Part shown: one piece after another, positions 1 to 24,926 of the stretch
Layout: each line of letters begins with the position of its first letter
How positions within the stretch are numbered: the stretch's first letter is position 1
Assembly (NCBI GenBank): GCA_041652335.1
Contig: JBAZHL010000002.1
Location: forward strand, 1 to 42,666
Direction: 5' to 3'
Length of the DNA stretch: 42,666 bases
From: Patescibacteria group bacterium
GTDB lineage: Bacteria; Patescibacteriota; Kazan-3B-28; UBA10110
Translations under genes and position numbers: made by a program
Notes under the pieces: model-generated
The model's database searches: none
The model's input: the letters and a program-made list of their open reading frames with translations, nothing else
What the model was told of the DNA's origin: nothing

Positions 1-1374
1 TTCGAAGCGGATCTTGTTCCAAATATAGTTGAGGATGATGTACATCCCGATCGGTCGCAGTGATTCTTCCAAGTCGCGAATGTTAAACACCACCAACCCA
101 CGATCGAGATCGAAGTTGGTTGGTTTATTAAATACTCCGGCAAAGGTACCGGTAACATATTTGTCGAGCCGCTGAGCCAAGCTCTCGGCACCAGTCACAT
201 TTTTTAGCACATTATATAGATCCTCCATCGTGGGGGCAGGATTTTTTTGACTATTAATATCGATGGTGATGTCGCGAGAAGCGTAGGTCTCACGGATGGC
301 GCGATCCATCAGTGCGTCTTCTTCGGGAGTGAGCGCGCCTAACATTAAGTTCATCAAGCCCAGGATGGCGATAATAGCCCCTCGGAGATTTTTTTCTCCG
401 TCGGCGTCGGCTCCTAAATCTGGCAGATCAAACGGGTTGATTCGTTTATCGGAGTTAAGGCTGACCGATAGGTAGCTACCGCCAACCGCTTTAGATAGGG
501 TCTCGTATTCGTTTTCTGGGTCGATCACAAAGACATCGGTACCCAACATTAGGCTACGCATGATCTCCAGCTTTACGGCGTAGCTTTTACCACCACCGGA
601 TTTGGAGAATACAACCATGTTGGCGTTTTCGAGCTTAAACCGATCAAACAGGATCAGACTATTATTGTGGCGGTTAATGCCATAAAGGATACCTTCGTTA
701 GTGGTGAGATCGGAGGAAACAAATGGGAAAGTAGTGGCCAAAGAAGAGCTGGTCATATTGCGTAGCACCTGCAGTTGGTCGTAAGCCAATGGCAGGGTAG
801 AGTTAAGCCCCTCTTGCATTTGGAGCAGAGCTTGCTTGGTGTAAACCAATTGACCACCTAAGGCCGTCTCGATCCGATCAGTGGCTAAGTTGAGATCTTC
901 TAAACTCTTACTATATATAGTGAAATACAGGGCGTAGTGGAAGAAGCGCTCTAACCCACGTTGCAGGCGGTCGCGGAGCTCTTCGGCATCTTGATACGCT
1001 ACCTCCAATTCTGGATCACGGATCGCGCCCTTCTCCTCGTTAATGCGAAGAGAGGATTCCATCTCGGTGACTTTGCGACGGAGCAGCTGCATAATGTCCG
1101 AACTTTCCATTGGGTAGATGTGCATCGAGACATCAAAGCCCATATCAAAGTTGATGATCGGACTAAGCCAGTTAGTCTCGACATATTGAGGATAGGTGAG
1201 CACAAATAGTGTCCGGACGTAGTAGCTGTTTAGCTGGAGGTAGTTGGTTTTGAGGGCGATTGAAGTGGGGGCGATCAGATCGCGCACAGAAAATAAGCCT
1301 TGTTCAAAGACCTCCTGCGCTCGGCGTACAGCAGCCTCTTCTGGGTCGACTTTTTTGCGTTTAAATAAAGCCAT
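1..1374 (-). CDS. virB4: VirB4/TrsE-like type IV secretion ATPase, main body (C-terminus runs off the window start)
   Basis: Absent from the ORF track because it has no stop inside the window. My reverse-strand translation from the ATG at 1374..1372 stays open for 458 codons to position 1 (MALFKRKKVDPEEAAVRRAQ...YVRTLFVLTYPQYVETNWLSPIINFD...). Walker A FSKSGGGKSY is encoded near 580-607, followed by VFVIDPENEY. This is the typical pattern of Gram-positive-type VirB4 ATPases. Confidence 0.85.
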   Translation of the reverse strand, partial: MALFKRKKVDPEEAAVRRAQEVFEQGLFSVRDLIAPTSIALKTNYLQLNSYYVRTLFVLTYPQYVETNWLSPIINFDMGFDVSMHIYPMESSDIMQLLRRKVTEMESSLRINEEKGAIRDPELEVAYQDAEELRDRLQRGLERFFHYALYFTIYSKSLEDLNLATDRIETALGGQLVYTKQALLQMQEGLNSTLPLAYDQLQVLRNMTSSSLATTFPFVSSDLTTNEGILYGINRHNNSLILFDRFKLENANMVVFSKSGGGKSYAVKLEIMRSLMLGTDVFVIDPENEYETLSKAVGGSYLSVSLNSDKRINPFDLPDLGADADGEKNLRGAIIAILGLMNLMLGALTPEEDALMDRAIRETYASRDITIDINSQKNPAPTMEDLYNVLKNVTGAESLAQRLDKYVTGTFAGVFNKPTNFDLDRGLVVFNIRDLEESLRPIGMYIILNYIWNKIRFE

Positions 1375-2057
1375 TATGATTCCTTTTCGGCTGCCATCTT
1401 AGTGATAACATCTGCATCTACGGCACTGATATTAAACAGTTTCTGCCGGCGGGCTAAATCTGGGTTGTAGGTAGAGTAGAGTAGATCGATTAGCTCCTCG
1501 GTGTTGAGTAGAGCGCTGCTGAGCCCTAAGGGCGCCAATCCGTTAACTACCAAATTGGCTCGACGGAGCAGCTCGGCTTTGTTCTCCTTAAATTTTCCGC
1601 TGACGGTAACGGCCTGTTTGCTAAATAGGCGAGTAAAAAAGTTACTGGCAGCGGCTAACCCGGGAGAGTAGGGGATCACCACGTAAAAGGTTTTGCTCAT
1701 AATATTAGCTACGCCGATCAACTCTTTGATAAAGTTGGTGTACTCTTGGGTTTGTAGCTGCAACAGTTCGTTGTTTTGCGCACGGCTAATATTGCCTAAA
1801 TGAGTTAGGTAGTTATCTAAATCTAAGATCCGCGATTGGACCACAATTTCGATCGGGAAGCCCAAGGCGTTAAGAAAGCTTTGGTAGTTTTCCAGTAGGG
1901 CGGTCTGTTCATCCTGCGATTTAAGGTTAAAGTTGATCGAGTTAACCATTAAAACGGCCCGTAGGCTGCCGTCCTTCATAACGATCGCCCCTTCTTTAAT
2001 GGACTTGAAGGGGAGATATTTTTGAGTACTGGCGGATGTTTTTTGTTTTTTGGCCAT
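1374..2057 (-). CDS. VirB4 N-terminal-region protein (separate 227-aa ORF)
   Basis: ORF track. LPFKSIKEGAIVMKDGSLRAVLMVNSINFNLKSQDEQTALLENYQSFLNALGFPIEIVVQS resembles the extreme N-terminus of Tn916-ORF16/TrsE-type VirB4 proteins. Its stop TAA overlaps the downstream ATG as TAATG. Confidence 0.6.
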   Translation of the reverse strand: MAKKQKTSASTQKYLPFKSIKEGAIVMKDGSLRAVLMVNSINFNLKSQDEQTALLENYQSFLNALGFPIEIVVQSRILDLDNYLTHLGNISRAQNNELLQLQTQEYTNFIKELIGVANIMSKTFYVVIPYSPGLAAASNFFTRLFSKQAVTVSGKFKENKAELLRRANLVVNGLAPLGLSSALLNTEELIDLLYSTYNPDLARRQKLFNISAVDADVITKMAAEKES

Positions 2058-2062
2058 GGATT

Positions 2063-2602
2063 TTAAACTTCGGTGTCTGATAAGACATCTTCTACCCCCA
2101 AATCGCGTTCGTTGGTGGGTGGAGCGGCGGGTTTGGTTGTGCCTAAATTATTAATTTCGTGGGTGGCGGAGATCTCTGCCACCTCCATTTTACCACCCGT
2201 ATCTAAGATAGTGGCCAATTTTTCGAGTTGGCTTTTGTCGATCGACTTAGCGGCAGTAGGAGTGGTAGCGGTTGGTTTGGCCAATTTAACCGCCATACTA
2301 TCTAAATGATTATTCTTATGCCAGAATCTCTGTTTGGGGGCAGTTAGAAAAGATCCTAAGCTGGCCAGGAAGGTAATAAACGGCCGGCCGTTTATCTGGA
2401 CAAAGGCTAACATCACGGCCAGAGCCATCAGAGCTAAACCGATGACTACGAATTCAGTTATAAACAGATAGCCAATAGCGTAATACTGGTAGGCGATAAA
2501 GGTAAGAGCCGCGCCGCCTAATAGATAGAGGAATTGCTTTAAGGTAAGCGGGCCTACCAGCTTATCTTCTTTATCGATATTTTGAGGGATCTTAGTAGCC
2601 AT
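2063..2602 (-). CDS. PrgI/TcpE-family (VirB3-like) small T4SS membrane protein with Thr/Pro/Ala-rich tail
   Basis: ORF track. N-terminal KIPQNIDKEDKLVGPLTLKQFLYLLGG followed by two hydrophobic helices matches the PrgI/TcpE signature. It lies 5 nt upstream of the virB4 pieces. Confidence 0.6.
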   Translation of the reverse strand: MATKIPQNIDKEDKLVGPLTLKQFLYLLGGAALTFIAYQYYAIGYLFITEFVVIGLALMALAVMLAFVQINGRPFITFLASLGSFLTAPKQRFWHKNNHLDSMAVKLAKPTATTPTAAKSIDKSQLEKLATILDTGGKMEVAEISATHEINNLGTTKPAAPPTNERDLGVEDVLSDTEV

Positions 2603-2607
2603 AATGT

Positions 2608-5280
2608 TTATCTATTTTCTTGTGGCGGTAACTCTGCCTTAGTGTTTTGGCGAATCAGTCTAACTCGCTGCAGGACCTGCGATAAGCGAGTGTTGTTTAA
2701 AGTGGTACCGGTCATGCCAGCGCCCAATCCGCCAGAATCTTGGAAGAACTTATCTAAGTTATTTTTAGTGGTCTGGTCTAACGCACTATCCACGGTCATG
2801 TCGTCAGTTACATCGGCGATATCTCCGACCCGGCTGATCAACTGGTCGTACATGTTATTGGCTCCGGTGTGGATGTTGTCTCTAACAGCTTCCACGGTTA
2901 ACTTAGGATCATCTTCAATCCGCTCTTGGATGAGTAGATCAACGGCTTGTTGATAGCTTTGAGTAGTATCACTTCCTAACTCGGCGCTGACTTGAGCGGA
3001 TAGGTCACCAGCAGTTTGTTGGGCGGAGCGAGTCTCATCTAAGGCAGGTTTGATCCGATCGATCAGTTGTCCAATTGTCATATTCCCGGCTTTAGCCCGA
3101 TCTCGCAGTTGGCGGGATAGTTGGATATCGGCGGGCGACATCTGAGCCTCCTGCGAGATGATGGCCAAGGCGGATATCTCTTCTTCTCTAATAGCAGGGA
3201 TATCCACGCGGAGCTGGGTTTTGCCAATTGCTCTTCCCTCTGAAAGGTCGCTCATAATAGCGGTGCCATCTTCGTGTTGAGCCAAGGCATCGAGAATCTC
3301 AGGGCGAATTTTTTCTAATTCAGCCTGAGCGGCTGGACTTTTAGATAGTTTATCGATCGCGGGGCTCTCGATCATAGTATCGATAGCCTGTTCGTCTAAG
3401 CGGAACGGTTTTAACGCAGCGGTTAGTGTGCCGCGAGCGATCTTTGAACGGGCTTCTGCCTGAGCTAACTGCAGCTCTCGGCTACTGGAAGCGTAATGGG
3501 GAGCGGAGATGCCTCCCGCAGCTTCATCATCCAGATCATCCCGCTGGGTTGGTATGTACTGGTTGCCTCTTTTATCGGCTGGAGGTTCCACGTCGCGACT
3601 ATCCAGATAGTAGGCTTTCATGGTTGGGTCTACTAAGCGATCTCTCTCGAAGGTGGTCAGACGTTTGATGCGGGAAGTTAGCCAGCCCTGGTTATTTTTC
3701 TCATTCTTATCGGCCATAAACTCACCATATAGGTCGGCGTCTGTGATTTTTTGTTGATCGCTTCGGCTATCTTTCATCTTTGGATCTTGCTGATGTATGG
3801 CGTGTTGCATTGAGCGGAGCAACCGGTAGGCGTTATAGCGTTCCTTAGGAACCAGTCTGGTGTTACGAACTACATCATCAGCCACGCGAGCGTTAGTAGC
3901 ATAGTTGATGTAGCTATCTGATGAGTCTAATAGGGTTTTGGCCAATGCGTCATACCCAGCATAGCCGTGCCGTTTAGCAGTTTCTTCGTGAACCTCTCCG
4001 CGAACACCCTTGATTAACCCAGGACGCCACGGATTCCACCCAGCTATATTCAAATCCGCAAGACGGGTGACACCGCGAGCGGCTGCCATGCCAGATTCAC
4101 TTTCTCTGGTTTTTTTCAGTGCTTCCCGGGCTTTTTTGATAGTTGCTGGGATAGCGCCTATTTGGGTTCCAATGTTTCTAAATTTTCCAAATTTTTCACT
4201 ACCGGTAGCTAAGTTCAACAGACCACCGGTGGCACTGCGGGTTAGGCCAATGCCCTTCCCGGCCAGATTTTTGCCGGTGACTGTATCGGCCGCTTGCTTC
4301 CACCCTTTCTGACCCAGGCTGATCATCTTGTTGGGTGATTCCACCAATCCAGTGAGAGAGCCACCTAACTTTAACATCTTAGGCACGGTACCGCCCATAT
4401 AGATCAGAGTCATGCCAATGATGAAGGAAAATAGATCTTTTATGTTATCACCCAGTGAGCCGTTGGGTACATTGATGGAGTTGCTGAGTTCGTAAATAAA
4501 CTCACTGGGTTTACCACTTTCGATCTGTTCAAGCACAAATACTCCCAACGCCAGAATGGCGTAGGTGATTGGCATAGCCAGTAACCACTTGAATACATTC
4601 TCAAACCACTGAGATGCCATTTTTTGAGTTGTAGGTAGCACGCTCAAACCAAACGATAACGGGGCAATGATCAACATCACAAACAGGTTGATAGCTCGCT
4701 CGATCAGCAGTAGGGCTAACTTGATCAATACCCAGGCGGATATGACCATGGCGACTAATACCAAAACAGTGCCATTGCTAAACTGAAAAAAGTGATCCGT
4801 GATCTTGATGCCGGCCAGATCTTTTAGGTAGGTGGTAATATCGGTGAGAGTCACTCCAATTCCGGTAGCGGAAAATAAATAGGACACACTGTTGAGCAGC
4901 GCATTGCCAACCTCAAGTAGGGCATAGAAGATAGGTTGGCTAAGATTGGCTAAAATGGCCATGATGATAAAGCTCCCCAAAAACTTTTTGATGTTGTAGG
5001 TGCCGGTACCAATACGTAGAATAATAGCAATCGAGGCAATTAGTAGCCCCAGGAGCAAAAACCCGTTGGCTAAACTAAGTGCGGCGGCGTGGGCGCCGTC
5101 CAGAGTTTTGGCTAACGCCGAGTCGGAGGAGAAGACCCAGTTGGGTTCGCCTAACAGGATGTCTAATATTTGGTTAACGATCGGCATAATAATGCCGGCG
5201 ATCATCTCAGCGAGCAGACCGATAAATCTGCTTAGTAGCTCTACCAGTCCCATCCCCAATTTAGTGATAAAGTCGCTCAT
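2608..5280 (-). CDS. VirB6/TrbL-like polytopic membrane protein with long hydrophilic C-terminal extension
   Basis: 890-aa ORF. The first ~330 aa carry multiple hydrophobic helices and the remaining ~560 aa are hydrophilic. It is the first gene of the minus-strand T4SS operon, 5 nt upstream of the PrgI-like gene. Confidence 0.55.
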   Translation of the reverse strand: MSDFITKLGMGLVELLSRFIGLLAEMIAGIIMPIVNQILDILLGEPNWVFSSDSALAKTLDGAHAAALSLANGFLLLGLLIASIAIILRIGTGTYNIKKFLGSFIIMAILANLSQPIFYALLEVGNALLNSVSYLFSATGIGVTLTDITTYLKDLAGIKITDHFFQFSNGTVLVLVAMVISAWVLIKLALLLIERAINLFVMLIIAPLSFGLSVLPTTQKMASQWFENVFKWLLAMPITYAILALGVFVLEQIESGKPSEFIYELSNSINVPNGSLGDNIKDLFSFIIGMTLIYMGGTVPKMLKLGGSLTGLVESPNKMISLGQKGWKQAADTVTGKNLAGKGIGLTRSATGGLLNLATGSEKFGKFRNIGTQIGAIPATIKKAREALKKTRESESGMAAARGVTRLADLNIAGWNPWRPGLIKGVRGEVHEETAKRHGYAGYDALAKTLLDSSDSYINYATNARVADDVVRNTRLVPKERYNAYRLLRSMQHAIHQQDPKMKDSRSDQQKITDADLYGEFMADKNEKNNQGWLTSRIKRLTTFERDRLVDPTMKAYYLDSRDVEPPADKRGNQYIPTQRDDLDDEAAGGISAPHYASSSRELQLAQAEARSKIARGTLTAALKPFRLDEQAIDTMIESPAIDKLSKSPAAQAELEKIRPEILDALAQHEDGTAIMSDLSEGRAIGKTQLRVDIPAIREEEISALAIISQEAQMSPADIQLSRQLRDRAKAGNMTIGQLIDRIKPALDETRSAQQTAGDLSAQVSAELGSDTTQSYQQAVDLLIQERIEDDPKLTVEAVRDNIHTGANNMYDQLISRVGDIADVTDDMTVDSALDQTTKNNLDKFFQDSGGLGAGMTGTTLNNTRLSQVLQRVRLIRQNTKAELPPQENR

Positions 5281-5591
5281 AACAATGTTTTAGTTACTGG
5301 GTTAAAACTGATCTGAGATATTAAGCTAATACCCCCTGAGAGGCTCGAAGGGGGATTTAGGGAAGGATTGTATTTGGTATTTGTTTTTTTCATACCTGTT
5401 TGGGTTGGTTTTGACGTTACTTTATTATAGCAGATATTTTTATTTTAGTCAACCCCTTTACCGATAAGCAGAATTAGGGTCGGGGAGTGTGTTTTTGGCC
5501 AGTTGATGGGTGCCTCGTGTTCTTTACAAAATCGGCAATATGTGATGTAATAAAGTAGCTGTAGTATAATGTTTTTAGATAATCAACGCAG

Positions 5592-7070
5592 ATGACTGAT
5601 CCAAAACCCGAGCCTACTCCGCCAAAAATGGACAGCTTGTCGTCGGAGCAGTTGCCAAGCGACCTCCGAGTGGCCGTGTCTGGAGGGGGGATAGACAAGC
5701 CAAATCGTTTGGGTTCTGTGGCGGTACTCCCTGGTGAACCTCGAAAGAAGGGGAACGGATCTAAATGGTTGGCCATTGGCGGTATTGTCCTGTTTGTACT
5801 GTTGCTTTTAACTGGAACGGCCTATTTTCTGTTGGGGAAGGTTAATTTAGGGATCAATCGGGGGACATTAAAACTGACTCTGGATCCGGCGGGGGCGGAC
5901 GTGGTGATCGATGGTAAATTTAAGCGGCAGTCGGTTAGCTCGTTGAACATCAAATTAAAAGCGGGCGAACATACCCTAATAGCCACTAAGGAAGGTTATC
6001 TTGATTGGGAGCAGGAGTTTACTTTATCGGCCAGCGAGACAAAAGAGATCAATTTAAAGTTGGATCCTACCCCAAATATCGAAGTATTGATCGAGGGTAA
6101 CATCGCCTTTCCGGAATTGGTTAGAAACGGGGCGGCGGTGGCCTACCTCACGCCGGGTAGTGGATTTTCGGTAACAGATCTAAGCGTTAAAGAGCAGGCC
6201 GCTTTGTTTGGTGGGGAGATAATCCCACAGACCCAATTGGTCAACTGGGCGCCAGGTGAGCCGATGGCTTTAGTCAAACTCGGTGGTAATCCCAAACTAC
6301 CCAACGTTTACGATAACCGAGGGGTGCGGGGTCGGTTTGTACCGCTGGGCGAGCGACCGGTACAGGGTGCGCCGCGAGATACGGGCATAAGCACGTGGTT
6401 GTTTGATGATGCACGCCAAACCGCTCAGGGATGGCAGCCAGTTTGGTTAAACGAGAGTATTCAAAATCTTGATTTTTCACCGGATGGCAGCCGGATAGTT
6501 TATCTTTATATCACTGCTGACGGCGAGCGATCGTTAGTGGTGGCTCACCCAGACGGAGGGGATTGGGAACGAGTAGCGCTGGAGGTAACCTTGGAAGATC
6601 CGGAGTTGGTTTGGCTGAATAACGACCAATACATTTTGATGATCGATGCCAACGGCAACGACGGCAATGATCAGTTATTTGATTTGGCGAGTAAAAATCT
6701 TAATACGGTGATGCCTGATCGAATAGCAAATACACCGGTGGCCAGCTCACCGGATGGCACTCGGATCTTGTATATATCCGGAGAGAACGGTCGCAAGTTG
6801 GCGGTATGGAACGTGGTCAGCAACTCCCGCGAAAAATTATTTGAGAGCGAGATCGGTGAGAGTACACAGTTTGTGTGGCAGACTGATAATAGGTTTATTG
6901 TTAGTAAGGATGATGGCAGCCTGTGGTATTGGGATCTCAACGGTAAAGAAAAGCCGGTGCAATTTATTAGCGCGGTGGGAGCGCTGGAGCCAGTTCGGTT
7001 ACTTTATTCGATTATTAATCACCAATTGCTGGTAGTTGAGCAGACACGTATTTTAAGTCTGAAGGCTTAA
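5592..7070 (+). CDS. membrane-anchored PEGA-domain / TolB-like beta-propeller protein
   Basis: One TM segment (WLAIGGIVLFVLLLLTGTAYFLL). PEGA-like segment LKLTLDPAGADVVIDGKF...GEHTLIATKEGYLDWEQEF. Repeated SPDGSRIVYLY and SPDGTRILYISGENG propeller-type motifs. The start codon is uncertain because there is no clear SD. Confidence 0.6.
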   Translation: MTDPKPEPTPPKMDSLSSEQLPSDLRVAVSGGGIDKPNRLGSVAVLPGEPRKKGNGSKWLAIGGIVLFVLLLLTGTAYFLLGKVNLGINRGTLKLTLDPAGADVVIDGKFKRQSVSSLNIKLKAGEHTLIATKEGYLDWEQEFTLSASETKEINLKLDPTPNIEVLIEGNIAFPELVRNGAAVAYLTPGSGFSVTDLSVKEQAALFGGEIIPQTQLVNWAPGEPMALVKLGGNPKLPNVYDNRGVRGRFVPLGERPVQGAPRDTGISTWLFDDARQTAQGWQPVWLNESIQNLDFSPDGSRIVYLYITADGERSLVVAHPDGGDWERVALEVTLEDPELVWLNNDQYILMIDANGNDGNDQLFDLASKNLNTVMPDRIANTPVASSPDGTRILYISGENGRKLAVWNVVSNSREKLFESEIGESTQFVWQTDNRFIVSKDDGSLWYWDLNGKEKPVQFISAVGALEPVRLLYSIINHQLLVVEQTRILSLKA

Positions 7071-9291: not shown

Positions 9292-9384
9292 GGTGAGGTA
9301 CCCAAGTGGCTGAAGGGGCTGGTTTGCTAAACCGGTAGAGGGGAGAAATCCCCTGCGAGGGTTCGAATCCCTCCCTCACCGCCA
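9292..9384 (+). tRNA. tRNA-Ser(GCU), CCA encoded
   Basis: Hand-folded. Acceptor GGTGAGG/CCTCACC, anticodon stem CTGGT/ACCGG with loop TTGCTAA, long variable arm, T-arm GAGGG-TTCGAAT-CCCTC, then G and CCA. Confidence 0.9.
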
Positions 9385-9387
9385 CGG

Positions 9388-9509
9388 TTTGGCGATCTTG
9401 CTTTGGCGAGATGGGCAGACCGTTGGTGAAGACGGACAGAGGGATGAGAGGTTTATACCCGACTTATAGAATATATATGGAAGGGTAAATCCCTCCCTCA
9501 CCGCCACGG
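9388..9509 (+). repeat. 100-bp insert followed by a 22-bp exact direct repeat of the tRNA-Ser(GCU) 3' end; carries a conserved core shared with 22397..22484
   Basis: AATCCCTCCCTCACCGCCACGG occurs at 9366..9387 and again at 9488..9509. The core 9439..9495 reads GAGGG-AT-GAGAGGTTTATACCCG-AC-TTATAGAATATATATGGAAGGGTAA-AT-CCCTC. Confidence 0.85.
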
Positions 9510-9597: not shown

Positions 9598-9675
9598 ATT
9601 AATAATGTAGGTTCGATCCGCTGTCTGGCGGACTACTATCACAGATAATAGTTAGAGCATTTAATATCTATAGCC

Positions 9676-10248: not shown

Positions 10249-10414
10249 AAAACTAACACTTATCTTTTGATGAGTGGTGGTTTTTTATTGAGCCAAGAAG
10301 GGATTCGAACCCAGTGAAAGGGGTCGGGGAAACGGGAGTTTCCCCGTAGTGGAAGAATCGAAACCGCAAGGTGTCGAGGAGGGGTGAGGCAGCCCGAACC
10401 CCGACGGGTTCCAT

Positions 10415-10432
10415 ATCCCTCCGGGCGCACCA
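10415..10432 (+). repeat. 18-bp exact direct repeat of the tRNA-Arg 3' end (second copy)
   Basis: ATCCCTCCGGGCGCACCA occurs at 10231..10248 inside the tRNA and again at 10415..10432, 166 nt downstream. Confidence 0.85.
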
Positions 10433-10581
10433 CGTCAGAACAACTACGCTCCTCGCGAACCGATGGAATCGGTTCGCTTGTGGTCCGCTTAGTTGTTCTT
10501 CCTTTCCAAATCATGAACGCCTCGAGGTTTGCACCTCGGGGCTATTGCATGATTTGGACTAAAAGCACCAACTGACGAAAC

Positions 10582-10607
10582 AAAAATCCCCCGGCTGGGG
10601 GATTTTT
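10582..10607 (-). terminator. bidirectional intrinsic terminator downstream of the pilin gene
   Basis: AAAAATCCCCC-GGCT-GGGGGATTTTT. A 7-bp GC-rich stem with an A-tract on one side and a T-tract on the other, 29 nt past the stop of 10636..10986. Confidence 0.75.
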
Positions 10608-10635
10608 GGATTGAAACTTGAATCTGCGCCGGTAA

Positions 10636-10986
10636 TTAGGAGGTAGTGGCGCCCAAGGTGGTGATAACCAGCTGAGCGATCAACGAGGCCAAAGCGACGA
10701 TGACTAACCCAGTAACTGCGTTAATGATCATCTGCTTAGCTTTCTCAGCACCTTTTTCTCCACCGGTGATGTACATAATGCCACCGTAGATCAGATAGAC
10801 AACAGCCAAGGCGCCAGCCAATCCCAGCAACCAGTTGCCAACCTTAACGATGATGCGAATGATGTCGGTATTGGCGCCGACCTGCCCAACTGCAGGAGCC
10901 TTAACTTGAGCGAAGACGGCTGCAGCCTGTCCAACGGTAGCCACTGTGGTGATAGCTACGCTGACAGCATGTTGAACTTTTCCCAT
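10636..10986 (-). CDS. VirB2/TrbC-like T4SS pilin (CPR-type T4SS pilin family)
   Basis: 116 aa. Signal-like N-terminus, then two hydrophobic helices around LAVVYLIYGGIMYITGGEKGAEKAKQMIINAVTGLVIVALASLI, the characteristic pilin core. Confidence 0.65.
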   Translation of the reverse strand: MGKVQHAVSVAITTVATVGQAAAVFAQVKAPAVGQVGANTDIIRIIVKVGNWLLGLAGALAVVYLIYGGIMYITGGEKGAEKAKQMIINAVTGLVIVALASLIAQLVITTLGATTS

Positions 10987-11058
10987 AAGTTACCCCTTTC
11001 TTAATAAAATAAATTAAAGTAATAACATTGTATCAGGAAAACGGTCTATCGAGTAGTT

Positions 11059-11301
11059 TTAGGTTAATAGAGTATTGTTGACCAGAGCGATCAATAATGA
11101 AGCCACAAACATTATTACTAAGCCAACGATGGCGGCAATAATGATTTTTTTACCACTCTCAGCATTCCCTTGCATATATTGAAAACCTCCCCAGATCAGT
11201 GCCAACACTACTAAAGCTCCACCGGCAGGGAGAAGTAGGGTATTGGCCACCTGTTCGGCCACGACCCTTAAGCGATCTACGAGGTTTAAGATAGTTTCCA
11301 T
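11059..11301 (-). CDS. second VirB2/TrbC-like pilin paralog
   Basis: Start trimmed to the internal ATG (METILNLVDRL...). ALVVLALIWGGFQYMQGNAESGKKIIIAAIVGLVIMFVASLL has the same core as the neighbouring pilin. The ATG overlaps the upstream SBP stop as TAATG. Confidence 0.6.
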   Translation of the reverse strand: METILNLVDRLRVVAEQVANTLLLPAGGALVVLALIWGGFQYMQGNAESGKKIIIAAIVGLVIMFVASLLIALVNNTLLT

Positions 11302-12641
11302 TAGTCCTGGGCAAGTTGGTTGATGTCTCTGGCGGCAGTGTCGATGGCGGTTGAAACTGCCACTCCGTCGTGCAAGACACTGGTAACCATGCGACCGAAG
11401 ATCGCCTCTACCTCTGGGGAATTGTGGCGATACCAAGATGTACTGTTGGCGGCCTGGCTGGCTACTGGGCCGTAGTACTGCCGGTCGACATACGCGTCGT
11501 TACTTTCTTTGGTGGCCGGGACGCGTTTGCTGGCCGACGAGTATTTGCCTTGGTTCTTGATAACAAATTTGATAAAGTCCCAAGCCTCATTTGGATGCGC
11601 GCAATTCTTAGACACTGTTTCACCCCAGTAGTTGGCAACTGTTAATGGTTCGCCCTGTCGCAATTGAGGTAGGGATGTTGTCTCAAATGTCAGGTTGGGG
11701 GCAAACTTTCTAATATTAGCGACTTGGTAGGAGTAGCCAATCATCATGGCCGCTTTGCCTTCCATAAATGCTTGGACATCCATGGGGAATTTAAGTGATC
11801 CGTCGTTATTCTTGGCGTCGGTGTAGGTGTAAACTGACGAACTGGGGTTGGCAAAGTCGGTATAGAATTTTAGCGCCTCTCGCCCAGAGAAATAAGCGGG
11901 ATCCGAATTGGGAGCGGACAGATCGAAGGTGGCCTTAGTGTGATCGGTGGTAGTCATCTCGCCGCCGTACTGCATAATTAGAGCGGCCAAGATCTCGGCA
12001 AAACGAGGAATACTATCGGCGGCGGTGCCCAACGGGATAGCGGATTGTTTAATGGTGTCGCCGCTGCCGTATTTGGTGAGTTTGGGTACCAGATCGACTA
12101 CCTCCTGCCAAGTCTTGGGCGGTTGCTTGATATTTAACTCGTCAAAGATATTGGTGTTGTAAAAAAGCATTAGGTTATCCAAATAGTAGGGAATGGCGTA
12201 GATGCGGTTGGCATCCACAAAATCGTTAACCACTACCGGATAAAATGTCTCCGAGTAGGTTTGGGTGCTCATCATCTCCGCTGGCATCGGGCTGATGTGG
12301 TTTTTGTTGTATGGTAGCCAGTCGTTGTGGATCATAAACATGTCTGGTCCATTTCCGTCCGCAACCTGCTTGATCAGATCTGCCTGATAATCGTAGACGG
12401 TCTCGCCTGGTTTAAGGCTAACCTTGCGAACGACTACGGTAATGTTGGGGTGATCCTCCTGGTAGAGTTTAACGATCTCGTCCAGGGCGGTGCTCTCATC
12501 AAACAGGCGATCGTACTGTAGTACGATCGGGGTAGTTTGATCGATCACCACGTTATTGGCGGTTCGATTAAAACAACCGGCAGCTCCCAAGACTAAGATC
12601 AACATCAAAGATAATGGCAGATACGATCGGATCTTTTTCAT
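11301..12641 (-). CDS. ABC-transporter extracellular solute-binding lipoprotein (sugar-type, family 1)
   Basis: 446 aa. Lipobox LVLGAAGC. Overall length and composition typical of sugar SBPs. No permease or ATPase gene is adjacent. Confidence 0.75.
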   Translation of the reverse strand: MKKIRSYLPLSLMLILVLGAAGCFNRTANNVVIDQTTPIVLQYDRLFDESTALDEIVKLYQEDHPNITVVVRKVSLKPGETVYDYQADLIKQVADGNGPDMFMIHNDWLPYNKNHISPMPAEMMSTQTYSETFYPVVVNDFVDANRIYAIPYYLDNLMLFYNTNIFDELNIKQPPKTWQEVVDLVPKLTKYGSGDTIKQSAIPLGTAADSIPRFAEILAALIMQYGGEMTTTDHTKATFDLSAPNSDPAYFSGREALKFYTDFANPSSSVYTYTDAKNNDGSLKFPMDVQAFMEGKAAMMIGYSYQVANIRKFAPNLTFETTSLPQLRQGEPLTVANYWGETVSKNCAHPNEAWDFIKFVIKNQGKYSSASKRVPATKESNDAYVDRQYYGPVASQAANSTSWYRHNSPEVEAIFGRMVTSVLHDGVAVSTAIDTAARDINQLAQD

Positions 12642-21837: not shown

Positions 21838-22180
21838 TTTAGAGATCGACACCAGAGTGTTTGCGGCTTTAAGTTATCTCTCGGTTCTGTTTGTGATCCC
21901 TTGGATCACCAAACGGGACGATAAGTTCGTGATGTTTCATGTTCGTCAGGGGGTGGTTCTATTTTTGGTCGAGGTGGTAGCGTGGTTCGTGCTATGGATG
22001 ATAGAATCTTTTCTGACCACGATCTTTCATTTTGGAGCTTTGACTTTGGTCTCGATCTTGTATAAGCTGGCGTGGTTGTTCTTCGTGGCGGTGAGTGTGG
22101 CTGGTGCCTACTTTGCCGCTCGGGGGGTCGAGAAACAGCTGCCCTGGTTGTGGTTGTTTGCTCGCAATTTAAAACTATAA
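21794..22180 (+). CDS. small membrane protein (DUF4870-like)
   Basis: 128 aa. AALSYLSVLFVIPWITKRDDKFVMFHVRQG pattern followed by hydrophobic helices. Confidence 0.5.
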   Translation: MENVETENQPQLVNNLEIDTRVFAALSYLSVLFVIPWITKRDDKFVMFHVRQGVVLFLVEVVAWFVLWMIESFLTTIFHFGALTLVSILYKLAWLFFVAVSVAGAYFAARGVEKQLPWLWLFARNLKL

Positions 22181-22188
22181 CTATGTAT

Positions 22189-22262
22189 GGGCCGTTGGCT
22201 CAGTTGGTAGAGCGGTCCGATGGACATCGGATAGGTCATCGTTTCGTCAGATGTTAGGTTGA
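22189..22262 (+). pseudogene. decayed tRNA-Ala duplicate (intact 5' half only)
   Basis: The first 26 nt GGGCCGTTGGCTCAGTTGGTAGAGCG are identical to the tRNA-Ala at 22274. The remainder has a 6-nt anticodon-like loop (TGGACA), a poor T-arm and no complementary acceptor 3' strand. Confidence 0.7.
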
Positions 22263-22273
22263 TAAGTTGTTAA

Positions 22274-22349
22274 GGGCCGTTGGCTCAGTTGGTAGAGCGC
22301 CTCCATGGCATGGAGGAGGTCACCGGTTCGAATCCGGTACGGTCCACCA
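22274..22349 (+). tRNA. tRNA-Ala(GGC), CCA encoded
   Basis: Acceptor GGGCCGT/ACGGTCC with the G3:U70 alanine identity pair, anticodon stem CCTCC/GGAGG with loop ATGGCAT, T-arm ACCGG-TTCGAAT-CCGGT. Confidence 0.9.
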
Positions 22350-22357
22350 GAAAATAA

Positions 22358-22385
22358 CACCCGCATCGGCGGGTGGTATTTTTAT
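22358..22385 (+). terminator. intrinsic terminator after tRNA-Ala
   Basis: CACCCGC-ATCG-GCGGGTG followed by GTATTTTTA. Confidence 0.6.
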
Positions 22386-22396
22386 GTGTAGTAAAC

Positions 22397-22484
22397 ACCG
22401 GATGAGAAGTTTATACCCGCCTACCGGCAGGCAGGCTCGACCTATAAAATGTATATAGGAGGGTAAATCCGGTACGGTCCACTA
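22397..22484 (+). repeat. conserved core element plus a direct repeat of the tRNA-Ala 3' end (17 nt exact, 18 of 19)
   Basis: AATCCGGTACGGTCCAC occurs at 22331..22347 and 22466..22482. The core reads ACCGG-AT-GAGAAGTTTATACCCG-[20-nt insert]-AC-CTATAAAATGTATATAGGAGGGTAA-AT-CCGGT and is homologous to 9439..9495. Confidence 0.85.
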
Positions 22485-22556
22485 CGGGTAATTTCGATCC
22501 CGCCCTTGGTGGGGTTTATGTTAAAATTAAGCTACTGGACAGATAAAAAGTGACGC

Positions 22557-24926
22557 ATGAAAGTGGTGATCAAAAAATATAGCCACCAGAAGATAGAGCC
22601 CAAGTGGCAGAAGTTTTGGGCTACTCACCATATCTTTACAGCTGTTACGGATGATGAAAGGCCTAAGTACTATGCTTTGGATATGTTTGCCTACCCCTCG
22701 GGCGATGGTTTGCATACGGGTCATCCTCGGGGTTATACCGCTACTGATATATTGGCGCGGTACTATCGAATGCTGGGTTGTAACGTGATGAGACCGGTTG
22801 GCTGGGATGCCTTTGGCCTGCCAGCCGAGAACTATGCCATTAAGGTTGGCCAGCCGCCGGCCAAGTTGACTAAGGTTAATATTGCGAGATTTAGTAAGCA
22901 GGTTAAATCGTTAGGGTTTGCTTACGATTGGGATAGGGAGGTTAACACCTCTGATCCGGCCTACTATAAATGGACGCAGTGGATCTTCAAGGTTCTTTAC
23001 GATAACGGGTATGCCTATCAGAAAGAAGCCTACGCTAACTGGTGCCCCAAGGACCAAACCGTGTTGGCCAATGAGCAGGTGGAGAATGGGTGTTGTTATC
23101 GGTGCGGGGCTGAGGTGGAGCAAAAGAAATTAAAGCAGTGGTTTTTTAAGATCACTGATTTTGCCGATGAATTAGCCCAACATTCGGATAAGTTAGATTG
23201 GCCGGAATCGACCAAGATCGGACAAAGGAACTGGATCGGCAGGAGCGAGGGGGCTGCTCTACAATTCCAAATTAAAAATGAACCACCACAGATAGAGGTA
23301 TTTACCACCCGAGCCGATACTATCTTTGGGGCAACTTATTTAGTGTTGGCGCCTGAGCATTCGTTAGTCAAAAAAATAACTACTAAGTCCCAACGATCGG
23401 CGATAGAGGAGTACGTGGCTGCCACTAAAAAGAAGAGTTCGTTGGATCGAACGATGGCTAAGGATAAGACGGGCGTGTTTACCGGAAGTTTTGCTATTAA
23501 CCCTGCGACTAAGTCTGAGATCCCAATCTGGATCGCTGATTATGTACTGACCGACTATGGAACGGGCGCGATTATGGCGGTGCCGGCTCACGATGACCGA
23601 GATCATGCGTTTGCGGCCAAATATAAATTGCCGATCGTCGAAGTGATCGAATCTGACCAAAATGAGTTACCGTACCTTGGCCATGGCAAGTTGATTAACT
23701 CTGGCCAGTTTACTGGGCAATCATCAAAATCGGCGGGGGCGGATATGGCTGAAGCATTTGGAGGCAAGACGACCGTACAGTACAAGTTGCACGATTGGCT
23801 GATCTCACGTCAGCGTTATTGGGGAGCGCCGATTCCCATTATTCATTTGGCTGATGGCGGGGTAAGGTGTGTGGATGTTGAGGATCTGCCGGTGAAGTTG
23901 CCTACTGATGTTGATTTTAAGCCAACTGGCGAATCTCCATTAGCCCTCTCCAAAAAGTTTCAGGCGGGTGTGGCCAAAAAGTATGGCAAGGGAGCTCGTA
24001 GAGAGTTGGATACTATGGACACCTTCGTCTGTTCGTCGTGGTACTTTTTACGCTACTGTGATCCCCACAATAGCCGGGAGTTTGCTGGCCCGGAGGCGAT
24101 GAAGTATTGGATGCCGGTTGATCTATATATTGGTGGTGCCGAGCACACTAATGGCCATCTGCTTTATGCTCGATTTATTACCAAGGTGTTACATAAACTG
24201 GGCTACATCAATTTTGATGAACCGTTCTTGAAGCTGCGGCACCAGGGTCTAATTTTAGGGACGGACGGCGAAAAGATGAGTAAGTCCAAAGGTAATGTGG
24301 TCAACCCCGATGAGGTGGTCGAGGCTTTTGGGGCTGATGCTCTTAGGATGTATGAAATGTTTATGGGCCCGTTTGATCAATCGTTGCCGTGGAGTACAGC
24401 CGGGATTGAAGGGGTGCGTAGGTTCCTTAATCGAGTGTGGAGTCTAAAACCAATAGCGGTCGCCCCGGAAACCGATCGAGCGATCCATAAGCTAACCAAA
24501 AAAGTGACGGATGATATTGAGCAGATGAAATTTAATACGGTAGTGAGCTCGTGTATGGAATTTGTAAACTTGGCCATTGATCGGGGGATTACTAAATCAA
24601 CCTTAGAAACGTTGGTGATGCTGACGGCGCCCATGACCCCGCATATTGCCGAAGAGATTTATCACAAGCTGGGTCACGAACAGAGTATCTTTACCGCTGC
24701 TTGGCCCAAGTTTGACCCAGCGCTGTTGGTAGAGGATTTAGTTACTGTAGCTATTCAGGTTGATGGCAAGTTACGCGGGACACTATCGGTTGCCCCGATG
24801 GCCACTGAGGATGAAGTTAGGAATCTGGCGCTAAAATTGCCCGGGTTGGTTAGCTACGTAGAGGGTAAGCAGGTAGTAAAAAGCCACTATGTGCCGGGGC
24901 GGATTATCAATCTGATAGTTAAATAA
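22557..24926 (+). CDS. leuS: leucine--tRNA ligase
   Basis: 789 aa. KWQKFW N-terminus, HTGH (HIGH), KMSKSKGN, typical LeuS layout. Confidence 0.95.
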   Translation: MKVVIKKYSHQKIEPKWQKFWATHHIFTAVTDDERPKYYALDMFAYPSGDGLHTGHPRGYTATDILARYYRMLGCNVMRPVGWDAFGLPAENYAIKVGQPPAKLTKVNIARFSKQVKSLGFAYDWDREVNTSDPAYYKWTQWIFKVLYDNGYAYQKEAYANWCPKDQTVLANEQVENGCCYRCGAEVEQKKLKQWFFKITDFADELAQHSDKLDWPESTKIGQRNWIGRSEGAALQFQIKNEPPQIEVFTTRADTIFGATYLVLAPEHSLVKKITTKSQRSAIEEYVAATKKKSSLDRTMAKDKTGVFTGSFAINPATKSEIPIWIADYVLTDYGTGAIMAVPAHDDRDHAFAAKYKLPIVEVIESDQNELPYLGHGKLINSGQFTGQSSKSAGADMAEAFGGKTTVQYKLHDWLISRQRYWGAPIPIIHLADGGVRCVDVEDLPVKLPTDVDFKPTGESPLALSKKFQAGVAKKYGKGARRELDTMDTFVCSSWYFLRYCDPHNSREFAGPEAMKYWMPVDLYIGGAEHTNGHLLYARFITKVLHKLGYINFDEPFLKLRHQGLILGTDGEKMSKSKGNVVNPDEVVEAFGADALRMYEMFMGPFDQSLPWSTAGIEGVRRFLNRVWSLKPIAVAPETDRAIHKLTKKVTDDIEQMKFNTVVSSCMEFVNLAIDRGITKSTLETLVMLTAPMTPHIAEEIYHKLGHEQSIFTAAWPKFDPALLVEDLVTVAIQVDGKLRGTLSVAPMATEDEVRNLALKLPGLVSYVEGKQVVKSHYVPGRIINLIVK

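Follow-up and report, generated by a model that had tools for sequence, protein, structure and literature searches.

The window (the whole stretch of DNA that was analysed, 42,666 nucleotides of a Patescibacteria contig) carries on its forward strand an intact tRNA-Ala(GGC) gene at 22274..22349, called by ARAGORN and by the Rfam tRNA model (66.5 bits), upstream of leuS, which starts at 22557. The final 19 nt of this tRNA (22331-22349, A58 to CCA) include the first copy of a 17-nt direct repeat, AATCCGGTACGGTCCAC, found exactly at 22331-22347 and again at 22466-22482; CA follows the first copy and completes the CCA of tRNA-Ala, and TA follows the second, which hence ends in CTA. The interval between the tRNA gene and the repeat copy measures 116 bp and holds a terminator-like hairpin (22358-22375) that, together with its T run, spans 22358..22385 (+) and is also present in a relative (locus L059), followed by the structured element described here, hereafter E.

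From 5' to 3' on the forward strand, E at this locus begins with a strand named P1, ACCGG (22397..22401), the complement of the T-stem 3' strand in the repeat copy (CCGGT, 22469-22473), a helix that covaries family-wide. It continues with a loop, AUGAGAAGUUUAU (22402..22414), which stands in place of T-loop residues U54-C56/G57, and with a second covarying hairpin, P2 (22415..22464), whose base is ACCC(G)...GGGU (ACCC 22415-22418 paired with GGGT 22461-22464) and whose distal part is variable. An AAAU junction then leads into the second tRNA-Ala 3' end, from A58 to the discriminator, with CTA rather than CCA (22465..22484, +). The distal part of P2 consists here of an AT-rich hairpin plus a 20-nt palindromic insertion (~22419-22438), a palindrome that was also found at other positions in other CPR genomes. 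Upstream of the intact tRNA gene, a decayed 5' part of a second tRNA-Ala(GGC)-like gene could be read by eye at 22190..22247 (+), running from the acceptor strand through TTCG of the T loop before stopping abruptly; neither ARAGORN nor Rfam called this piece, and a direct repeat of 81% identity links 22177-22223 to 22262-22308.

A sister E lies on the same strand behind tRNA-Ser(GCT) (9439..9509, covariance model, 46.5 bits), with GAGGG as P1, the core, and a 22-nt copy of the tRNA-Ser 3' end, a sequence that thereby occurs twice (9366-9387 and 9488-9509); this E adjoins tRNA-Ser(UGA) at 9508. The two loci can be aligned over 22397-22484 and 9439-9509, the Ala copy carrying the 20-nt insertion relative to the Ser copy, and each of two core boxes has exactly two sites in the window, at 9442 and 22400 for GGATGAGARGTTTATACCCG and at 9474 and 22452 for TATATRGRAGGGTAAATCC (0.01-0.03 matches expected by chance, two reached in 0 of 100 shuffles). 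Wider similarity 3' of the two loci was not significant (28 vs. 22.8 ± 4.4). Both copies belong to what we term the Kazan-type subfamily, recognized by an AT-rich tip of P2 and by homology in the spacer upstream; at the Ser locus this spacer (9385..9438, +) is homologous to spacers at other tRNAs in other genomes. The preliminary description had proposed a second copy of a conserved element at tRNA-Ala(GGC), with the same core and with flanks switched from Ser to Ala, and this is borne out by the exact 17-nt repeat, the two core boxes and the homology to the Ser locus, the T-stem strands of the respective upstream tRNA bracketing each copy; the CTA-for-CCA ending and the terminator hairpin between the repeat copies likewise stand in the sequence. 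Between the two copies, P1 differs at four of five positions (GAGGG vs. ACCGG) and the adjacent 20-nt box at one of 20, and the P1 strand is therefore matched to its target independently of the tRNA.

Family-wide, the layout of E from 5' to 3' is a P1 strand, G53, AUGAGAAGUUUAU, the P2 hairpin, (U)(A/G)AAU, and then, from C61 onwards, the tRNA copy, the 3' part of E duplicating exactly the stretch of the upstream tRNA that extends from A58 to the 3' end. The P1 strand, of 2-6 nt, is the complement of the 3' strand of the T stem, with which it usually forms 4-6 bp. P2 has a conserved base, N-CCC...GGG-N (CCCC/GGGG-based), whereas its tip varies freely from 3 to more than 60 nt and may be a GCA or GAAG loop, a GNA mini-hairpin, or a hairpin of 20-60 nt that is either GC-rich or AT-rich. 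Minimal E is ~30 nt long, and whole units measure 50-130 bp. The loop AUGAGAAGUUUAU is invariant in the 45-sequence alignment, and two positions that the scan pattern (see below) had left free were AA in 65 of the 66 matches. In effect, E corresponds to a T arm plus the acceptor 3' strand of a tRNA, in which U54-C56/G57 are replaced by a conserved loop and P2.

This structure was evaluated on two alignments. Across the 45 sequences, 93.7% of cells were paired, compared to 83.1% after shuffling (0 of 500 shuffles reached the observed value), with double changes at seven pairs and a drop to 29-56% paired in slid controls. An independent alignment of 99 metagenome sequences gave 91.8% vs. 79.7% (0 of 500), a figure biased towards the structure by the model-fitting of that alignment. 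The basal pair of P2 is G-U in 59, A-U in 16 and C-G in 12 of these 99 sequences, and because of the G-U pairs the structure reads best on the tRNA-sense strand. As for the insertion that the preliminary description had placed at the tip of a TTTATA/TATAAA helix, its 20 nt are indeed there, within the variable distal part of P2, but the helix itself is unsupported, since GUUUAU never varies and shows no covarying partner and most members lack TATAAA. The AT-rich half is in fact limited to the Kazan-type subfamily, most members having GGAGCGAAGCGUA or a bare GAAG/GCA loop instead.

The P1 5' strand is identical to the T-stem 5' strand of the tRNA itself in just 20 of 81 cases, and 27 of 29 positions that form a wobble pair (G-U or U-G) in the tRNA are Watson-Crick in E. 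Judging from these sequences, the P1 5' strand did not arise as a copy of the tRNA. The repeat matches the tRNA of its own genome even where tRNA sequences vary between genomes; since it tracks the resident tRNA in this way, in-genome duplication, gene conversion or selection is needed. It always starts at A58 and measures anywhere between 15 and more than 30 nt; the most frequent lengths, 17 and 19-20 nt, are those of a stretch that ends with the discriminator or with CCA. In 45 of 66 elements, at least 17 nt of the 3' flank recur without mismatch 27-83 nt upstream.

To evaluate the distribution of E, one genome per species was scanned with the pattern GATGAGNNGTTTATNCCC-gap-GGGTAAATC, yielding 66 matches at 56 loci, nearly all in named CPR lineages (Paceibacterota, Falkow-, Komeili-, Magasanik-, Morani-, Peri- and Gracilibacteria, Kazan and Parcubacteria). 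Some E-bearing MAGs bear the record label “uncultured Gammaproteobacteria”, and one “Bacteroidetes”; some of the MAGs so labelled share a long-P2 variant with a named Falkowbacteria MAG (L004 and L031 vs. L022). The window itself falls within Patescibacteria by its LeuRS, whose named relatives include candidate division Kazan. Metagenomes scanned with the 5' box alone contributed at least 120 loci, and a covariance model built from 45 copies picked up more divergent ones, including ~12 extra copies detected by this model only. Overall, the family comprises at least ~180 copies at no fewer than ~170 loci in CPR/Patescibacteria genomes and metagenomes, and E often occurs several times per genome in many CPR lineages. 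Among the matches listed, a tRNA gene lies within 400 nt upstream of ~130 of 183 elements, the nearest being most often Ser (69), Gln (26), Asn (10) or Val (7) in these matches, and otherwise Ala, Tyr, His, Lys, Pro, Arg, Leu, Met or Gly. The resemblance between the two window loci is thus not isolated, as a genome-wide search might have found it to be, and the element earns the word “portable” that had been applied to it, with related units at 13 tRNA types.

Searches for known relatives and partners of E returned little. At gathering score, Rfam 15 recognized only tRNAs in the window, and E matched no family, ribozymes included; the best sub-threshold hit, which the terminator accounts for, was to the unrelated Leu_leader on the reverse strand, at 26.5 bits where 50 are required, and a canonical E copy reached at best E = 0.14. 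Viral contigs, phage records and plasmid records contained no match to E. Near E loci, we detected no conserved neighbour gene or partner protein, the downstream genes being unrelated between loci, and the window genes scanned included no recombinase, consisting of housekeeping genes, type-IV-secretion-like genes and genes for proteins without a Pfam match. A literature search by sequence string and by topic found no description of E, so that a family with a 13-nt invariant loop and two covarying helices, spread in CPR, is apparently undescribed.

Comparison of orthologous loci revealed E to be a polymorphic presence. The tRNA-Ala(GGC)-leuS locus lacks E in three relatives (L057, L059 and L061, LeuRS identity 83, 70 and 68%, respectively), and the tRNA-Ser(GCT)-tRNA-Ser(UGA) locus lacks it, as judged by the covariance model, in four (L182-L185), where the two tRNA genes are 17, 27, 102 and 387 nt apart and in one case flank a GIY-YIG gene. 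The closest relative, GCA_016936175.1, has its Kazan-type E copies elsewhere, behind Ser(GGA) and Ser(CGA) (L020, L053), and the Kazan-type spacer and core are homologous at Ser(GCT), Ser(GGA), Ser(CGA) and Leu(UAA), with the repeat of the local tRNA at each. Two near-identical genomes with identical flanks (L104 and L048) have two vs. one units, non-identical, at the same tRNA. As far as such locus comparisons go, E units are gained and lost at the genus level. Tandem arrays were observed at six loci (L043, with a 70-nt period, L054, L012, L056, L034 and L042), with non-identical units in the array at L056 as well as at L104. Decayed E copies were also found (L030, L017, L046 and L022), and decay of the repeat flank or core is visible in the CTA of the window and at L003, L025, L040, L030 and L017. 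Occasionally, the tRNA-E interval holds cargo, which at L002 spans 4.4 kb and includes a gene for a large serine recombinase and at L166 is a methyltransferase-like gene of 1 kb; at L177, the interval contains a secondary IS200 insertion. Comparison with L056 suggests that the L002 island may just have inserted into the spacer.

The reading that we favour, and to which we give about even credence, is that E represents a CPR-wide family of miniature, gene-less and non-autonomous insertion units whose anchor point is the T-loop region of tRNA genes. Each unit consists of an optional spacer or terminator, the T-stem-complementary strand, the hairpin core, and a duplicate running from A58 to the tRNA 3' end; the upstream tRNA stays intact, and the duplicate would be equivalent to the “displaced tDNA fragment” found at the distal end of tRNA-integrated elements. 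The core and the target-matched P1 would then act as a cis-acting, structure-forming module for machinery encoded elsewhere, with the join at about T-loop position 57/58. This reading is the most economical because it accounts for the tRNA-integration layout together with gain and loss and copy-number polymorphism. Against it, no recombinase or other gene for mobility is consistently linked to E loci, with none in the window, and a unit of 50-130 bp is, to our knowledge, below the size that known integrases can excise as a double-stranded circle. In the window and in L059, a shared terminator and linker precede different inserts, which counts against each unit bringing its own terminator. Further serious points against it are the match of the repeat to the resident tRNA, with the in-genome duplication, conversion or selection that this needs, the possible origin of the L002 island by insertion into the spacer, and the lack of any match in viral contigs and in phage and plasmid records. 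G-U pairs at the P2 base (59 of 99 sequences) and the extreme conservation of the 13-nt loop across deep CPR lineages would suit an RNA no less than a DNA site.

Several known systems offer a frame for such units. Integration into a tRNA gene that regenerates the gene and leaves a displaced fragment, crossovers in the T-stem region, and tandem arrays are well known (PMC4383910), and the Islander work (Williams, 2002, as cited in PMC4383910) describes islands and prophages at tRNA genes with crossover in the T-stem region. Displaced tRNA fragments behind tRNA genes are, in other words, nothing new; what is new with respect to the literature searched is the structured core that replaces the T loop, the target-matched stem, and the spread across CPR as gene-less units. 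Like Islander-type islands, E loci present an intact tRNA followed by a cognate fragment in direct orientation, from the T-arm region to about the tRNA 3' end, units may stand in tandem at one tRNA, and cargo is occasionally found (L002, L166). Unlike these islands, E units have no integrase or any other gene within their 50-130 bp (the sole integrase-type gene inside an interval being the L002 serine recombinase), they share a phylum-wide invariant hairpin core that replaces the 5' half of the T loop, the strand ahead of this core is re-matched to each target, and our searches found no phage or plasmid carrier. CIMEs, which are gene-less att-flanked remnants that accrete in tandem (PMC5704250), provide a second parallel, as E is also gene-less, bears attL/attR-like repeats at the tRNA 3' end, and accretes in tandem with other units (arrays L056 and L104). 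Yet CIMEs are kilobase-sized and derive from identifiable ICEs or IMEs, whereas E measures tens of bases around one structured core that is common to many tRNA targets and lineages, and neighbour genes, viral contigs, and phage and plasmid records yielded no parent ICE or IME.

A third parallel is the attC site of integrons. E is likewise imperfectly palindromic, with some bases unpaired, the base of its stem is conserved, its tip is dispensable and varies greatly in length, its arrays are anchored at one primary site, and the flank beyond the presumed join is part of the stem. It differs in lacking the RYYYAAC/GTTRRRY consensus, intI and attI, in that most “cassettes” are empty, and in that its outer stem is dictated by the tRNA (ACCGG/CCGGT, GAGGG/CCCTC), GTTTATR being a misfit to GTTRRRY. 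With these boxes absent and no recombinase nearby, an integron attC site was rejected.

A different possibility, which we entertain tentatively, is that E is a structured small RNA, produced by co-transcription or read-through from the upstream tRNA and set free by the enzymes of tRNA processing. The single-stranded tail of this RNA would have the sequence of the tRNA 3' end, and the RNA might serve as a decoy or competitor for partners that bind this end by pairing or otherwise recognize it, as a source of spare tRNA 3' portions, as a small ribozyme or as a guide. Such an RNA-level role is compatible with mobility. Covariation on the tRNA-sense strand, including the distribution of pairs at the P2 base, argues for it, as do the invariance of the 13-nt loop next to a freely variable tip and the fact that the repeat follows the tRNA sequence of each genome. 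Spacers between tRNA and E are bimodal, and those shorter than 30 nt, without a terminator (34 of 85), must be co-transcribed with the tRNA. At the Ser locus of the window, moreover, E sits between two tRNAs that presumably form one transcript, the distance between them being 17-27 nt in the relatives L185 and L183, and an E RNA is therefore almost certainly made and cut out there. The remaining spacers, however, are 40-69 nt long (51 of 85), and at least 29 of these, the Ala copy included, have a terminator-like hairpin and T run ahead of E. Also against an RNA role are the decay of repeat flanks and cores in many copies, the dispensability of E at both window loci in all relatives examined, the lack of any similarity to Rfam families, and the absence of an acceptor 5' partner upstream (on average 4.57 pairs vs. 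4.36 in shuffles).

Known tRNA-linked RNAs resemble E in part. As in the tRNA-like domain of tmRNA, mascRNA and plant tRNA-snoRNA dicistrons, a T-arm-like stem is combined with an acceptor 3' strand, sometimes with CCA, and the location of E would suit release by tRNA-processing enzymes; E differs from these RNAs in having neither acceptor 5' strand nor T loop, and no tRNA, tmRNA or mascRNA model matched it. In type V-K CRISPR-associated transposons, a short homing guide matches a tRNA gene, and E similarly combines a structured RNA-like module with ~17-20 nt identical to a tRNA 3' end. Near E, though, there is no cas12k, Tn7-like gene, transposon end or CRISPR array, and what would be the guide has its first 5 nt base-paired in P1.

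A more specific version, which we consider unlikely, is that E is an RNA device that recognizes tRNAs by base pairing and acts at the T-loop 57/58 junction. Here, P1 would pair with the T-stem 3' strand, and the 13-nt loop and P2 would form a catalytic or protein-recruiting core. The device might be a minimal RNA-guided mobile element aimed at T loops, or else a host “spare-part” system that releases tRNA 3' portions from A58 to CCA; such portions would have a 5'-OH end and could be joined by an RtcB-type ligase, repairing tRNAs cut in the T loop. The patterns that suggest a device of this kind are the Watson-Crick re-matching of P1, the fixed A58 junction, the sense-strand covariation and the invariant loop.

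It is quite unlikely that E is instead an inert scar, left when ordinary islands or phages that target tRNA genes lost their interior, multiplied by slippage between the direct repeats, and without a function of its own. Unrelated inserts do occur in the same layout of tRNA, insert and displaced 3' fragment at the same kinds of site (L059, L001, L046), decayed tRNA pieces lie near E loci (22190-22247 in the window, and L027), and slippage makes tandem arrays easily. But random deletion would not spare an identical 30-nt core in at least ~180 cases across deep CPR lineages, the two helices covary with P1 re-matched to each target, and the units of an array are sometimes non-identical (L056, L104).

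Finally, the preliminary description had suggested that E could be a portable cassette, promoter or leader, for the transcription of leuS behind the Ala copy and of tRNA-Ser(UGA) behind the Ser copy, which now appears very improbable: the one candidate, ATGAGA-17 nt-TAGAAT, present in the Ser copy as in other insertion-free copies of the Kazan type, matches 9 of 12 positions and is within chance (0.5 expected per region), the Ala copy has its hexamers set 37 nt apart by the 20-nt insertion, with no sigma-70-like site found in 22000-22800, the AT-rich, -10-like segment is absent from most family members, and the genes 3' of E are unrelated between loci. Family-conserved -35/-10 hexamers at the 16-18 nt spacing of a sigma-70-type promoter are thus not present in E. 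For its part, leuS has its own extended -10-like box, TGTTAAAAT (22519..22527, +), which lies 3' of and outside E in the conserved leuS upstream region, and which is kept, or replaced by a close variant, in the three E-less relatives (L057, L059 and L061); E is not the leuS promoter. At the other locus, tRNA-Ser(UGA) follows tRNA-Ser(GCT) so closely in the E-less L185 and L183 that it needs no promoter of its own there.

Other identities were set aside more directly. A tRNA with a T-loop insertion or intron was rejected, since a tRNA spanning the site was called in 0 of 183 cases among the matches listed once TTC had been put in place of the core, ARAGORN and Rfam calling the upstream tRNA only. 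GGTGAAG upstream of the Ser copy had suggested an aminoacylatable minihelix, which E is not, given that there is no general acceptor 5' partner. Hammerhead, hairpin, pistol, twister and hatchet ribozymes, K-turns and box C/D motifs gave no Rfam signal, and inspection by hand found their CUGA and GAAA elements and tandem G-A pairs missing. A MITE is contradicted by the target dependence of the sole inverted repeat, P1, and by a repeat of 15 to more than 30 nt rather than a fixed-length duplication. For a TIGR-Tas or CRISPR-like array, all would-be spacers are the local tRNA 3' end and there is no Tas or Cas gene; the TIGR architecture of 36-nt units, dual spacers and CCA/UG boxes is itself a misfit with E. 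A retrocopy of mature tRNA stopped at m1A58, to which the A58 start of the repeat had pointed, was rejected as well: gene and repeat agree in CCA status in 74 of 86 pairs, the 12 discordant pairs fall in both directions (7 vs. 5), and the repeat sometimes runs into the tRNA trailer, observations on CCA status and trailer that argue for duplication at the DNA or precursor level. E is also not the right end of the L177 IS200, which has its own hairpins and lies between the terminator and the E linker, and is therefore a secondary insertion. Nor could the L059 insert, whose core-only score was 40.5 against a shuffled mean of 40.1, be taken for a decayed E, a reading under which the Ala copy would be ancient.

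CPR/Patescibacteria have tiny, streamlined genomes, and their mobile DNA and non-coding RNAs are scarcely known. On a practical level, the partial tRNA copies made by E can confuse tRNA annotation and island-finding in CPR genomes. If E is mobile, it would be an unusually small unit that is joined at the same T-loop nucleotide of many tRNAs and keeps the tRNA intact, with a stem rewritten for each target, and identifying the machinery behind its movement might uncover a new mode of targeting. If E is instead active as an RNA, it would represent a new class of tRNA-linked RNA.

Directly upstream of the intact tRNA-Ala(GGC) gene (window 22274-22349) lies another tRNA-Ala(GGC)-like gene, of which a decayed 5' portion remains (22190-22247). 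Its nucleotides 1-26 are the same as those of the intact gene, whereas its anticodon stem differs from the intact one by compensating changes and its anticodon loop contains one additional A. This decayed gene stops just past the T-loop TTCG, i.e., at the same point where the downstream tRNA-Ala repeat copy starts, behind the small hairpin-forming element E. A motif made up of TTCGAY with a short GC hairpin behind it is found after the Ala repeat copy (22494-22515) and after tRNA-Ser(UGA) (9611-9640). It also opens the spacers of the Kazan-type elements (the E subfamily with an AT-rich tip on the main hairpin, P2) at three loci of other genomes (L020, L053 and L104; CGATTCGACAATCTCGCC...GGCGAG). 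The spacer version resembles the T loop and CTCGCC/GGCGAG T stem known in Paceibacteria tRNA-Ser, a short similarity, and may be the fossil of an earlier target.

In a second type of unit end (L001, about 5640-5680 on the minus strand; L041; L055), a GC hairpin such as GGGCCTTGGCCC precedes TTCG and the tRNA-end repeat, so that the T loop is retained and the 5' strand of the T stem is replaced. In L034, the last unit of the array behind tRNA-Tyr (6505-6571) ends with the P2 3' strand (GGGT); the sequence beyond it is unrelated and contains no copy of the tRNA end.

Within the Kazan-type copies, a sigma-70-like match (ATGAGA-17 nt-TAGAAT, 9/12 positions) occurs at window 9444-9472, in the Ser copy, and in L020, L045, L048, L053 and L104. 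This match arises from the invariant loop and AT-rich P2 tip of the subfamily, is within chance level, and is broken by an insertion in the Ala copy. The Ala copy has a ~20-nt palindrome, GCCTRCCGGCAGGCAGG(C), inserted in its P2 tip (22419-22438), with further sites in L006 (103-122 and 1924-1940), L013 (6509-6528), L018 (1335-1354), L027 (299-315) and L049 (1596-1615 and 3749-3768). The palindrome splits the tRNA-end repeat of other E elements and is also present at unrelated sites in other CPR genomes; it resembles a very small insertion sequence in its own right.

In L002, a 4.4-kb segment (1955-6359) separates tRNA-Ser(UGA) from its E unit, and comparison with L056 places it exactly within the TTT(T) spacer. 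The segment encodes a large serine recombinase with Resolvase, Recombinase and zinc-ribbon domains, along with five small ORFs. In L010, a group I intron (2963-3220; Rfam, 79.6 bits) lies inside the tRNA upstream of the E unit, and because of this interruption ARAGORN missed the tRNA; the 3' end of this split tRNA looks like the Gln type.

Finally, the tRNA-Ala and tRNA-Ser spots of relatives hold other inserts. The closest relative (GCA_016936175.1) has a small GIY-YIG gene instead of E at both its tRNA-Ala(GGC)-leuS locus (L057, 2119-3990) and its tRNA-Ser(GCT)-tRNA-Ser(UGA) locus (L182, 5258-5644). These genes encode 79 and 84 aa with 28% mutual identity, each preceded by a long inverted repeat beginning directly after the tRNA CCA, and no tRNA-end repeat was found at either locus. 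A GTCTTCGC...GCGAAGAC structure is common to L057 and L061, another relative's E-less tRNA-Ala(GGC)-leuS locus. The sites directly 3' of these tRNAs appear to attract inserts of several kinds. In L059, a third such tRNA-Ala locus, the same terminator and linker lead into another structured insert, ~140 nt long (3763-3900), at the position of E. This insert has no significant similarity to E and no Rfam family match, and is followed by a 26-nt tRNA-Ala end copy including the complete T loop. The tRNA-Ser cluster is flanked, here (window 1374-7070 and 10253-11436) as in relatives, by type-IV-secretion-like genes (PrgI-like in the window; TrbL-like and T4SS pilin/TrbC-like in syntenic relatives).
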